A DNA stretch of 64,000 bases from the IMG/VR virus record IMGVR_UViG_3300028653_000010; one strand, 5' to 3'. Shown here one piece after another: positions 33,106-35,552 of the stretch (the first letter of the stretch is position 1; every line of letters starts with the position of its first letter). The notes beneath the pieces are model-generated. The model was not told where the DNA came from, searched no databases, and was given only the letters and a program-made list of their open reading frames with translations. The stretch is from a virus. The translations under genes were made by a program, and so were the position numbers.

Positions 33106-33546
33106 ATGAAGCTATACTCTGAGTTTTTCACCACTTTGCATGATGAAGACCCAATACTGGGTAATGGTATTCACTATTCGGTACTACGGGCTCTTGTATG
33201 GGTACCTCAGATGAGCAATCACGACTTTGCTATCATCTGGGGTGCGGATCATGATTCGCGGATCTTGTGGGTAGCGGAGCAGCTCTATGTTCGTCTTCTA
33301 CTTCACCATGTCTTGTTCATCTCTGAGAGTGCTTCTCGGGTTACGGTCTTGACATCGGGACCGGTGGCGATGGAGTTTGAGCGTGGGTTCAGGGAGATTG
33401 CGGGTCGGGTTTCGTGTTATTGCTCCGAGGTCTGTATCGAGCCTTTTCGGAGTGGTACTGGGTACATAGCTGACGATACGGTTGAAGTATCGTCATACCT
33501 GAATGGGATCAATGAGCGTTGGTCTTTGGGTACCCGGGGGGCGTGA
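33106..33546 (+). CDS. hypothetical protein (146 aa)
   Basis: ORF track. Confidence 0.4.
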   Translation: MKLYSEFFTTLHDEDPILGNGIHYSVLRALVWVPQMSNHDFAIIWGADHDSRILWVAEQLYVRLLLHHVLFISESASRVTVLTSGPVAMEFERGFREIAGRVSCYCSEVCIEPFRSGTGYIADDTVEVSSYLNGINERWSLGTRGA

Positions 33547-33838
33547 TTTGGCTTTACCGCCTTCATGTGATGGTTGTCGGTATTGTCCCTTGACGTATCC
33601 CTCTCAGGGTGTTGTAGGCACGGAGGCTATTGGCCGGATACCGGTTGCTGACTTTGTTTGGAGGGCGGCTTGTTCTCGGGGTCATGAGGTACGGGTCTGT
33701 TGGGTATGGGATGGTCCATTGGAGGATGTGAAGACTATCCATCTGTATCGTTCGGTTCTTTGGTTGAATTGTCCTGACCGAGACGTCAAGTATGCTGGGC
33801 TTCGGAGGAGTCGTTACTCGCGGGAGTGGGTGATTTGA
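33503..33838 (+). CDS. RYERDPVI-tail family protein (ends ...RRSRYSREWVI); the start is uncertain (ATG 33503 or TTG ~33548)
   Basis: N-terminal CDGCRYCPLTYPSQGV is paralogous to the N-terminus of 35040..35552. The conserved C-terminal tail is present. Confidence 0.45.
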   Translation: MGSMSVGLWVPGGRDLALPPSCDGCRYCPLTYPSQGVVGTEAIGRIPVADFVWRAACSRGHEVRVCWVWDGPLEDVKTIHLYRSVLWLNCPDRDVKYAGLRRSRYSREWVI

Positions 33839-33870
33839 TGCCTAGATATGAGCGGGATCCGGTCATCTGA
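33838..33870 (+). other. 10-codon mini-ORF encoding only the family tail (MPRYERDPVI)
   Basis: atgcctagatatgagcgggatccggtcatctga; its ATG overlaps the TGA of the upstream gene. Confidence 0.25.
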
Positions 33871-34387
33871 TGGTGTACTCTTTGATATGCCTGTACGAAA
33901 AAGTTTTGCTAGTCAAAAGCTAATGGGGTGTTCTGAAGTACCGGTTGAACTGCAATTGGAGGCAGCTCGGTATCTTTTGGCGTGGGCTGATAGCAATCGA
34001 AGACCCTCCTTAGTCTACTCTACCTCAGCCTTCATATTCCAACACAGTACGGATCAAGACGAGCGACTTTCGAGAGCGCAATACTTGATAGGGGAGAGGT
34101 CTCCCCTATACGTCGTTGAGAGTACCCAACTCGATGTGGCTAAGTGGGTGCTTCAGAATCTAGAGGAGGGTACTGTCGATTATGACCTCGCTTGCATTTT
34201 TATTGTCAGGTTAGATCCCACATCACAGTTAGCTGGGCAAGCGGGTCAATACCTATACCGTACGGCGTTTGCTGATCCTGTCGAGGAAGAAGTTCAGGAT
34301 GATCCATCGTTACCTGCTGAGCCATCGGAAGAGAGTTCCAATTTACTTGAACGAGTCTCGAGATACGAGCGGGAACCGGTCATTTGA
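33848..34387 (+). CDS. RYERDPVI-tail family protein (179 aa; ends ...RVSRYEREPVI)
   Basis: ORF track; conserved C-terminal tail. Confidence 0.5.
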   Translation: MSGIRSSDGVLFDMPVRKSFASQKLMGCSEVPVELQLEAARYLLAWADSNRRPSLVYSTSAFIFQHSTDQDERLSRAQYLIGERSPLYVVESTQLDVAKWVLQNLEEGTVDYDLACIFIVRLDPTSQLAGQAGQYLYRTAFADPVEEEVQDDPSLPAEPSEESSNLLERVSRYEREPVI

Positions 34388-34506
34388 CTTCCGGAAGCCA
34401 TCCGATTACCTCCCAGTTGAAGTCTATCTCTGAGTTGTCGTCAGCGGTTCTCCAGTAGCAGTCATCTTCGTCGACGTGGACAAGAACGGACTCGACGAGC
34501 TTCCCA

Positions 34507-35040
34507 GTGGTAGCCCCTCGGAGGAGGGCTCTGACGGGTACTCCGACCGCGGGGTTTTGCTTCTTTGGGTCAATCCACATTTGGTGTAATCTCGGGTATA
34601 TGCCAACGATTGAAGTGGACGAGAGCGATCAGGTATTCGTGGTCAAGGGGCGTACGGGTCGTGGTGGGTATCACGAGTTTGGGCCGAGCGATCTTATCAT
34701 AGCGGTACAGAGTCTTCGTAGTGTTATTGACGAGGTGGGCTTTGAAGACCCTGGAGTACCGGAGAACGACATTTATACTCGTGTTTGGATAGGTGGTACA
34801 TACTGGGGTGGCTGGGGTGGGTTTACCCTCACGAATTTGGGGGGCCCTCGGAACACCCATGTTGAGTTCACCTTTCAGAGGGGACAAGCTCCAGTACTAC
34901 AAGAGAGGATTCTGGGTCTTGGTCCATGGGCAACGATTCGATACCTAGGTGACCCCACTGGCTCATCGGAACCACCCGTTGAGGAGCCATTGACACCGGT
35001 TGACAGGGTCTCGAGGTACAACCGGGATCCGGTCATCTGA
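34507..35040 (+). CDS. RYERDPVI-tail family protein (ends ...RVSRYNRDPVI)
   Basis: ORF track; conserved tail. Its stop overlaps the next start (TGATG). Confidence 0.5.
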   Translation: MVAPRRRALTGTPTAGFCFFGSIHIWCNLGYMPTIEVDESDQVFVVKGRTGRGGYHEFGPSDLIIAVQSLRSVIDEVGFEDPGVPENDIYTRVWIGGTYWGGWGGFTLTNLGGPRNTHVEFTFQRGQAPVLQERILGLGPWATIRYLGDPTGSSEPPVEEPLTPVDRVSRYNRDPVI

Positions 35041-35552
35041 TGCCTAACCCTTGTGACAGTTGCCGGCACTGTCCCTCTACGTATCCCTCTCAGGGTGTTA
35101 CGGGGGACGCGGTAGGGCGGTCCCCAAACTTTGGGTGGGAGGGCACTTGCTTACTGGGGCATCCGGTCGGCATCCTATGGGAGTGGGTTACTGAGAACTT
35201 CGTGAGTGAGGACTCGTTGGTGAAATCCTCTTTGATGTTCAACATCTGGGAGCGTGAGTCAACACTACACGTCACGAACTCAACTAGATTCCCGGCTCAA
35301 TCGAGGTTTAAGGTTCAGGTTGACCAAGAGATCATACTGGTTACTAGTGTCGATACTGGCGTTGGGGGTAACACTTGGAGGGTAACTCGAGGGGTTGATG
35401 GTACTATCGCTATCCCTCATGCCGCTGGGGCGATTGTTACAGGCGCAACGATAGCGGCTATTCGACTTTACCGGTCGAACACCCTTGGTTCATGCCCTGA
35501 CTGGGCTGAACCTATTCGGGTGAGTCGGTATCATCGTGCGTGGGTGATCTGA
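35040..35552 (+). CDS. RYERDPVI-tail family protein (170 aa; ends ...RVSRYHRAWVI)
   Basis: ORF track; N-terminal CDSCRHCPSTYPSQGV. Confidence 0.5.
   Translation: MPNPCDSCRHCPSTYPSQGVTGDAVGRSPNFGWEGTCLLGHPVGILWEWVTENFVSEDSLVKSSLMFNIWERESTLHVTNSTRFPAQSRFKVQVDQEIILVTSVDTGVGGNTWRVTRGVDGTIAIPHAAGAIVTGATIAAIRLYRSNTLGSCPDWAEPIRVSRYHRAWVI

Follow-up and report, generated by a model that had tools for sequence, protein, structure and literature searches.

Introduction

Targeting peptides that are both short and portable are, to our knowledge, rare; the known examples, among them the capsid targeting sequence (CTS) of phage T4, the cargo-loading peptides (CLPs) of encapsulins, and the ssrA tag, have become powerful tools. 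The internal proteins of the T-even phages (IPI, IPII, IPIII, and Alt) are diverse and small, and one short conserved peptide is common to all of them; at least some act against host defence, their loci vary between relatives, and the conserved segment borders the cassettes (PMC3012670). In encapsulins, C-terminal CLPs suffice to load cargo into shells of the HK97 fold (PMC7355545). Here we analyze a family of genes from an uncultured huge phage, represented by a stretch of 64,000 nucleotides (IMG/VR virus record IMGVR_UViG_3300028653_000010; the whole stretch is called the window below), the products of which end in the same short peptide, hereafter the tail. The initial annotation of the window had listed eight such genes and proposed that their ending is a common recognition signal. 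We show that the tail is selected as a peptide and that it is carried by at least 29 body families without relation to one another, complete Tad2-like anti-defence domains among them.

The tail family resembles the T-even internal proteins in its small and diverse bodies (29 clusters), two of which are Tad2-like, and in the variability of its loci between relatives. However, the T-even CTS is an N-terminal peptide that attaches to the scaffolding core and that the prohead protease removes at an L/I-x-E site, whereas the tail forms the extreme C-terminus and has an unrelated sequence. The tail family also has many more members, and neither a protease site nor linkage to structural genes was seen. 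No conserved N-terminal peptide of the CTS type was found in the family, the only shared N-terminal feature being a Met-Pro start (20/51 proteins). Encapsulin CLPs are likewise short C-terminal peptides that follow a flexible linker on unrelated cargo, but their consensus is Gly/Leu/Ile-rich and, unlike the tail, is not known to contain RYxR or a P/W-V-I end. Moreover, encapsulin cargo genes adjoin the shell gene and each system has few cargoes, while the tail family has dozens. No encapsulin or HK97-type Pfam match was obtained in any locus, and the tail is not to be classed among the CLPs.

Tandem and orphan cassettes, a conserved junction peptide, remnants, and rapid turnover are also known from the arrays of polymorphic toxins and contact-dependent inhibition systems. 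In those arrays, in contrast, the conserved part is N-terminal to the toxin and each cassette is paired with an immunity gene; the tail family showed no toxin domains and no such pairs. The frame-independent nucleotide conservation of attC-like repeats or miniature inverted-repeat transposable elements was not found in the tails. Shared targeting peptides on diverse cargo are thus a known kind of element; what is new is this motif, its C-terminal position in a phage, the scale (at least 29 families), and the lineage.

Distribution of the tail in the window and in related phages

A six-frame search of the window with the regular expression RY.R.[PW]VI returned 10 matches, all of which (10/10) were followed directly by a stop codon and none of which was internal, while 50 shuffles of the window gave no match. 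Relaxed versions of the expression added no stop-ended tail in the window and just one more across all loci (with a …PII ending). The eight tails of the initial annotation were all recovered at the ends that it had given, that is, at 33838, 34387, 35040, 35552, 50148, 51480, and 55174 and on the minus strand in 55167..55502. Two copies in the window were absent from that list (3881..3973 and 33838..33870), and two further ones lie directly left of the window; altogether, the window phage has 12 tails in ~73 kb, left flank included.

Relatives were found by back-translating the tail variants into DNA patterns and scanning public collections with them. This search of metagenomic phage sequences, which had been recommended with the initial annotation, detected the same terminus on 58 distinct open reading frames (ORFs) of 10–278 aa in at least 6–8 related uncultured phage genomes. 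Contig A (IMG/VR, 67 kb) is syntenic with the window, its proteins are 50–88% identical to those of the window phage, and it has 10 tails in 21 kb. Contig B (IMG/VR, 98.5 kb) is also rich in tails and far more distant from the window phage. A single tail is present in L028 (IMG/VR, 11.6 kb), and nine metagenome contigs also have real tails. In the related loci, every tail copy (58/58) ends at a stop codon and no internal copy exists in any locus of the tail-family phages; the tail must be a free C-terminus.

The few chance matches could be told apart by the lack of a stop codon, by a deviating GC content, or by their occurrence as a lone copy. Three loci were discarded on such grounds, none of them containing a real tail: L015 and L023 have no stop, and L023 and L031 are of very different GC content. 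Across one genome per species of 185,579 bacterial and archaeal species, RYERDPVI followed by a stop gave no match, and RYERPWVI followed by a stop gave one, which is probably due to chance. The latter (L037) is a lone GRYERPWVI* in a 59-codon frame of a Planctomycetia metagenome-assembled genome with 59.5% GC. Since no convincing copy occurred in these cellular genomes, the tag is, on present evidence, specific to one phage lineage and found only in phage contigs.

Other searches were less suited to so short a motif. A hidden Markov model (HMM) profile of the window tails, searched against 1.84 billion representatives, found three window proteins, one ortholog, and one Pro-rich false positive; such a search is unfit for counting the family because a 12-column motif cannot reach significance at 1.84 billion entries. 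A 42-aa tail alignment used as homology query matched none of 12 candidates, and a 1038-aa concatenation of seven tail proteins, which was probably swamped, matched none of 8000. In the literature, none of ~8 million papers searched in full text contained the motif strings, and a keyword search revealed no described C-terminal tag of comparable kind in jumbo phages.

Anatomy of the motif and selection on the peptide

The consensus of 57 tails is P-x-x-R-[V/L/K]-[S/T/N]-R-Y-E-R-[D/E/K/P]-[P/W]-V-I-COOH. Arg at −8, Tyr at −7, Arg at −5, and Ile at −1 are invariant, position −9 is always Ser, Thr, or Asn, and Val occupies position −2 in 98% of the tails, Glu position −6 in 74%, and Arg position −11 in 72%. 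Position −3 has two forms, Pro in 34 tails (mostly after D or E) and Trp in 20 (after P, K, S, A, or G), both of which are present in every well-sampled genome. The 20 residues upstream of the tail contain 13.8% Pro and are also rich in Glu and Lys; this linker is probably a flexible leash between body and tail. A distant phage has spacing variants (RISRYER-ISDPLK-WVI and TRYSR-VLEGQ-VI), in which residues are inserted between the two halves, suggesting that the motif is bipartite and consists of RYxR and a hydrophobic carboxy-terminus.

As a separate observation, one tail of contig B (L029 ~7501..7530, plus strand) reads RVSRYDRK-TAG-VI-stop, with an amber codon where Trp (TGG) was expected. 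This could be due to a recent nonsense mutation, to an error in sequencing, or to read-through.

The diversity of synonymous codons in the tail DNA, from which the initial annotation had argued for selection on the peptide rather than on a nucleotide site, was borne out and could be quantified. In the set of 58 unique tails, each of the two invariant Arg positions draws on all six Arg codons, the Ser codons come from the TCN as well as the AGY box, and Ile has three codons. Averaged over the last 8 codons, the entropy amounts to 0.64 bits at the first, 0.32 bits at the second, and 1.48 bits at the third codon position. Three ortholog pairs, each with one member from the window phage and one from contig A, have bodies of only 49–65% identity, while the last 9 residues are the same (9/9) and all nucleotide differences in the 81 tail nt (14/14) are synonymous. 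Orthologous tails are thus 100% conserved over divergent bodies, the opposite of the lack of conservation in homologs that would have spoken against a functional peptide. The DNA repeats at the tails cover just 29 nt at 66–86% identity, with variation mostly at third positions; because of this and of the synonymous-only differences between orthologs, an explanation by a DNA site was rejected.

Bodies of the tail proteins

After removal of the tails, 52 bodies fell into 29 BLAST clusters, 18 of which were singletons, in agreement with the earlier view that the bodies are unrelated. The exception made in that view also proved correct: the N-terminal CDxCRxCPxTYPSQGV is common to two proteins of the window, of 111 and 170 aa. 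These paralogs align throughout except for an internal segment of ~70–85 residues, which is present in the 170-aa protein only, and residues 72–135 of the latter, in the inserted domain, match weakly to N-terminal domains of tail-fibre or virion proteins. Searches of the window tail proteins against Pfam, PHROGs, and PDB sequences gave nothing beyond this weak match.

Two members from contig A consist of a complete domain similar to Tad2, the Thoeris anti-defence protein (PF11195), followed by linker and tail. They scored 38.7 and 37.3 bits against a Pfam gathering cut-off of 25 and cover model positions 1–73 and 1–71 of 73 with their residues 1–60 and 1–67, respectively; by sequence, they look like Tad2-type anti-Thoeris sponges. 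Since some members resemble anti-defence proteins, counter-defence factors may be over-represented in the tagged set. One further member is weakly DUF2158-like. Another has a clear N-terminal transmembrane (TM) helix, and a second looks membrane-anchored by eye. As basic residues follow the TM helix, the tail of such members, and hence its receptor, would be located in the cytoplasm. The bodies are mostly acidic, with a median isoelectric point of 5.3.

A Met-Pro start is more frequent among the tail proteins (20/51) than among the other ORFs of the window (12/119; Fisher p = 2e-5, the start assignments being heuristic), and may reflect the copying of a cassette junction or be a further feature that the family has in common. 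Some junctions of tandem tail genes read ...GTN ATH TGA TGC C..., and Met-Pro starts are found, for example, at 34600 and 35040.

Tail genes of the window and turnover of the arrays

The tail genes stand in tandem arrays, the content of which differs between related phages. In the window, an array of genes for 111 aa, a mini-ORF, 179 aa, 146 aa, and 170 aa lies between conserved flanking genes; at the same site, contig A has an ortholog of the 170-aa gene and two different tail genes, and its 111-aa ortholog is part of another array.

The first gene of the window array (33503..33838, plus strand), which was not called by metagenome gene callers, encodes the 111-aa Cys-rich protein ending in ...LRRSRYSREWVI. 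Its ortholog in contig A (L032 3500..3820) is 44% identical and has kept the tail as RVSRYNRLPVI. The 10-codon mini-ORF MPRYERDPVI (33838..33870, plus strand) overlaps the preceding stop in a TGATG and also the start of the next gene. It is present in all contigs of the same phage that span the site (5/5; L001, L002, L003, L005, and L017) and absent from contig A, and is a tail-only remnant or, possibly, a free tag peptide. The 179-aa protein (33848..34387, plus strand; end ...ERVSRYEREPVI) has an acidic Pro/Glu/Ser-rich linker ahead of the tail, no Pfam or PHROG match, and a body that forms a singleton cluster. The body of the 146-aa protein (34600..35040, plus strand; end ...DRVSRYNRDPVI), the longest ORF of which begins at a GTG at 34507, is also a singleton. 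The array ends with the 170-aa protein (35040..35552, plus strand; end ...IRVSRYHRAWVI), in which the Cys-rich scaffold carries the inserted domain; the counterpart in contig A (55% identity) has the end RVSRYERKWVI.

Outside this array, 3881..3973 (plus strand) is a 30-aa mini-gene (MPGHCPTKGQPDPPEPPRIRLSRYERTPVI) with its own ATG that ends in the tail. It is the internally deleted remnant of a 165-aa tail gene, of which the N-terminus, the Pro-rich linker, and the tail were kept; the intact counterpart (L018 146..643, minus strand) lies at the same position, after the ortholog of window ORF 3278..3877. The stretch 49762..50148 (plus strand), listed as a family member in the initial annotation, does contain the tail, but not an intact gene: it is interrupted by an in-frame TAG at 50023–50025, and the following 40 codons, which end in LSRYERPWVI, have no start codon. 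It is either a pseudogene or a gene dependent on read-through. Its last 10 codons differ synonymously at five positions (5/10) from those of the identical peptide ending at 51480, which belongs to a 209-aa protein (50851..51480, plus strand; 200 aa if started at the ATG at 50878; end ...PRLSRYERPWVI). Its body family has the widest conservation of all, with members in the window phage, contig A, and contig B. Recoding of stop codons was considered for the TAG at 50023 and for a TAA at 3875 and rejected, as TAG, TAA, and TGA all end other tails; for 3875, it was also rejected because 3881..3973 is a separate mini-gene with its own start.

The last two genes are convergent and overlap by 8 nt. 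One of them (54836..55174, plus strand, with an alternative GTG start at 54779) encodes a 112-aa protein ending in ...KRVSRYERDPVI, the body of which is 49% identical to that of its ortholog, while the tail is 9/9 identical with 6 synonymous differences. The other (55167..55502, minus strand) encodes a 111-aa protein with three CxxC motifs and the end ...KIKNRYQRDPVI.

The tails at 33851–33870 and 35021–35040 have 20 identical nucleotides in common. TGA is the stop codon of 28/37 tails as compared with 45/90 background ORFs, TAG and TAA also occurring, and 12/37 tails overlap the next start codon (TGATG or TAATG). The tail-coding ends appear to act as recombination or deletion junctions, a behavior that we read as a by-product of the shared peptide and not as its cause. 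The arrays show the turnover of gene cassettes in progress, with the tag as recombination junction.

Possible function of the tail

The part of the initial proposal that concerned a portable C-terminal tag on unrelated bodies stood up well, and its recognition by a common partner is a reasonable inference. We consider it probable, judging from the sequences, that the tail is a portable docking or recognition tag of some kind. All tagged proteins would dock onto one shared receptor via the terminal V-I carboxylate and the R-Y-x-R element, and this receptor, which would be as conserved as the tag itself, would set the destination of the accessory proteins. As to that destination, the tag might load the accessory proteins into the assembling capsid, from which they would be ejected with the DNA into the next host. 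Loading into the virion for co-injection is ranked first among the purposes considered because the pattern matches that of the T-even internal proteins and because C-terminal peptides load HK97-fold shells. The HK97 fold is the fold of tailed-phage capsids. The array turnover and the deletion remnants, which resemble the variable T-even internal-protein loci, also favor this purpose, as does the weak match of one body domain to tail-fibre or virion proteins; even so, we regard it as doubtful. The combined statement, a docking tag for one receptor with virion loading as the preferred outcome, is offered as a tentative working model.

Several points weigh against virion loading or the combined model. 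No receptor of the tail was found, and in the loci that were read no gene for a capsid, portal, protease, or scaffold protein came to light, the tail genes being situated among replication, RNA-repair, and other auxiliary genes rather than in structural modules. A sponge of the Tad2 type must be abundant, which agrees more with expression in the cell than with the injection of a few copies. Membrane anchoring, which is probable for some members, would be unusual for capsid cargo, although in other phages there are ejection proteins that enter membranes. The CTS known from phages is N-terminal and cleaved, and no cleavage motif is evident in the tails. The AlphaFold2 (AF2) prediction for the 170-aa tail protein, calculated from an alignment with one paralog, failed, with a predicted local distance difference test (pLDDT) score of 33.

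In its most general form, the proposal is that a clade of CRISPR-carrying huge phages evolved a C-terminal “zip code” (RYxR plus P/W-V-I-COOH on a Pro-rich leash) together with a dedicated receptor, which we put forward as a speculative possibility. If it is true, a new gene could join the common pathway just by recombining in front of the tag, and this pathway would be either capsid loading for co-injection or a timed degradation or conjugation run by the phage. In the case of capsid loading, the tail would be the first C-terminal signal defined by sequence that directs cargo to the virion of a tailed phage, and a programmable handle for packing foreign proteins. The tag would assign dozens of dark-matter proteins of a huge-phage lineage to one functional pathway and thereby give a handle on unannotated genes. 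The identity of the receptor would reveal how huge phages organize or deliver their accessory proteome, and a minimal tag of ~11 residues could serve for phage-particle loading or for the control of protein fate in infected cells.

Alternative explanations

The shared destination could also be a protease. In this case, the tail would be a C-terminal degron or timer, by which a host or phage enzyme (ClpXP, Lon, FtsH, or a phage protease) clears early takeover and anti-defence proteins on schedule. Known C-terminal degradation tags (ssrA, ClpX C-motifs 1 and 2, and …RRKKAI of MuA) are transferable and have a free C-terminus with a basic-then-hydrophobic end, and the strictly C-terminal tail on its flexible linker has the layout of the ssrA- or MuA-like C-motifs of ClpX. 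A cytoplasmic tail, and hence receptor, as predicted for the member with the clear TM helix, would suit such a fate, as would the position of the tagged genes in non-structural, early-looking regions and the presence of a zincin-like gene in the same operon in both the window phage and contig A. However, the ssrA and ClpX tags are degenerate and of other sequence, and known degrons in general are far more variable than the 8-position tail motif, in which at least 6 positions are near-invariant. None of the known ClpX, Lon, or Tsp tags matches the tail in sequence, and the tail has only the general basic-then-hydrophobic layout in common with LAA-COOH or RRKKAI-like motifs. No protease link was found, the HExxH protein encoded beside the array is not co-distributed with the tails, and there is no clear reason to destabilize a stoichiometric sponge such as Tad2. 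A degron is held to be unlikely.

Perfect conservation of the tag across phages with orthologs only 27–60% identical is also what a slowly evolving host target would impose. The tail might mimic or exploit a site on a host hub, such as the ribosome, RNA polymerase, the replisome clamp, or the divisome, and thus concentrate the effectors there. C-terminal hub-binding motifs on flexible linkers are common in bacteria (clamp motifs, the tail of the single-stranded DNA-binding protein SSB, and NWETF), and the β-clamp motifs and the NWETF of chemoreceptors share with the tail proteins the order of folded domain, disordered linker, and short conserved C-terminal peptide. Those motifs, in contrast, sit on functionally related cellular proteins, whereas the tail is found on unrelated phage accessory proteins and its sequence is new, with no likeness to known clamp, SSB, or FtsZ motifs. 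No convincing copy that could be mimicked exists across the 185,579 bacterial and archaeal species genomes, and dozens of proteins would compete for a single site. We judge docking to a host hub to be quite unlikely.

The invariance of the terminal Ile and of the free C-terminus would also be expected if the tail were the substrate of a carboxylate-modifying enzyme that extends, adenylates, or conjugates it. The window encodes an R2K-clade ATP-grasp protein (14098..14835, plus strand; PF18299, E = 2.5e-37), the counterpart of which in contig A shares 80% identity. Members of the R2K clade are predicted ligases of amino acids onto protein carboxylates, and the protein is a speculative candidate for acting on the tail. 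A 261-aa ORF in L027, among the tail-bearing regions of contig B, is ThiF/MoeB-like by eye. Both enzyme classes act on C-terminal carboxylates (RimK and E1), but their known substrates end in Glu or Gly-Gly, not in Val-Ile, and the case is purely circumstantial, the candidate genes lying 20 kb off or in another genome. Such a modification is improbable.

It is more improbable again that the last 9–11 residues act in cis from within the exit tunnel, modulating termination, reinitiation, or the fate of the mRNA as arrest peptides do. The length of the motif corresponds to the upper tunnel, Pro or Trp occurs near the stop, TGA is over-represented, about a third of the tails (12/37) overlap the following start codon, and the 10-codon mini-ORF lies just upstream of a gene. 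Nevertheless, all three stop codons are in use, the majority of tails do not overlap a following start, and after one convergent pair nothing follows at all, while the Pro-rich linker and the RYxR/VI spacing variants point to a motif that is displayed and not fitted to the tunnel. Finally, a DNA element (a site of recombination or attachment, or a small mobile repeat) with merely incidental translation is effectively refuted as the primary explanation: cassettes that vary among related phages do have tails at their junctions, tails are retained in deletion remnants, and one pair of tails shares a 20-nt identical stretch, but the identity of the tail DNA is low, its variation is concentrated at third codon positions with every synonymous Arg, Ser, and Ile codon used, and the tails are always in frame and stop-ended, never in another frame or intergenic (the two mini-ORFs themselves being in frame).

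The HExxH protein encoded beside the array

The initial annotation had pointed to a HExxH peptidase-like gene in the same operon as the tail array (37187..38464, plus strand). The motif is present as HEIGH in its 425-aa product, but a partnership with the tails was not supported. The gene lies in a tail-bearing operon in both the window phage and contig A, whereas no tail or other shared ending was found within 10 kb on either side of two more distant homologs, L034 (50% identity, on a 407-kb contig) and L035 (36%); we consider the protein a neighbor only. Altogether, 20 homologs with 34–80% identity were collected from huge-phage contigs of up to 465 kb, in which H262, E263, H266, E388, and E392 are invariant, and one of them carries PF15887 (Peptidase_Mx). 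Pfam, PHROGs, and PDB sequence searches with the 425-aa protein itself gave no match. Its AF2 model (pLDDT 84.5) had weak gluzincin matches in the PDB by Foldseek (E = 0.047; probability 0.87 for selecase), and the protein is plausibly a zincin.

The gene is flanked by paralogs encoding 167–183-aa proteins (36611..37162 and 38489..38992, plus strand) with an N-terminal W-Y-L-x-Q...L-V-D-x-C-T, and a relative of these with 34% identity is located directly beside a tail gene of contig B (L027 10488..11096, minus strand). Two more HExxH proteins are encoded in contig B (L027 5877..8563, minus strand, and L028 6253..7947, plus strand), the layout of which was judged by eye to be that of the HExxH protein of the window (HExGH ... 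[S/N]-[D/Y]-[Y/A]-[G/K] ... E-x-F-A-E-x-F). The ThiF/MoeB-type, E1-like ORF of contig B occupies L027 5101..5886, and a GroEL-like ORF (by eye) is found in L028 immediately upstream of the tail gene.

Other genes of the window

The source phage is uncultured and was repeatedly assembled from ENA, JGI, and Logan metagenomes, the longest assembly being 443,068 bp. A megablast search of 30000..42000 against deposited phage genomes gave no match, and no tRNA was found in the window. The annotation of the window is nearly empty; recognizable are GIY-YIG and HNH endonucleases, Thg1 and a kinase, a sigma-like factor, HU-like proteins, the R2K ATP-grasp protein, a pilin-like protein, and a DDE transposase.

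A CRISPR array (45166..46478) consists of 19 copies of the 36-nt repeat CCTTCAAACCCCACCTACTCATAATCGGATCAACAC with unique spacers of ~36–38 nt. It is adjoined by two ORFs on the minus strand (46686..47396 and 47405..49264), one of which encodes a 619-aa Cas12f-like protein. Its RuvC-like region matches Cas12f (E = 4.9e-6) and is accompanied by a C-terminal zinc ribbon, and a homolog with 27% identity is present in contig B. By sequence, the array and the 619-aa ORF look like a compact type V CRISPR-Cas system on a huge phage.

The 95-aa protein encoded at 50523..50810 (minus strand) is unusually conserved: its identity is 80% in contig A and 83% in contig B, a distant relative in which 27–52% is the rule for the other proteins. 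Its gene and that of the 209-aa tail protein are always divergent. The 95-aa protein has no Pfam match and contains a ...TPQLELPF... stretch that resembles a β-clamp-binding motif. The pilin-like protein (53062..53415, plus strand), which is 77% identical in contig A, has a type IV pilin-like N-terminal methylation motif (PF07963), suggesting that the host is a bacterium equipped with the machinery for type IV pili or type II secretion.

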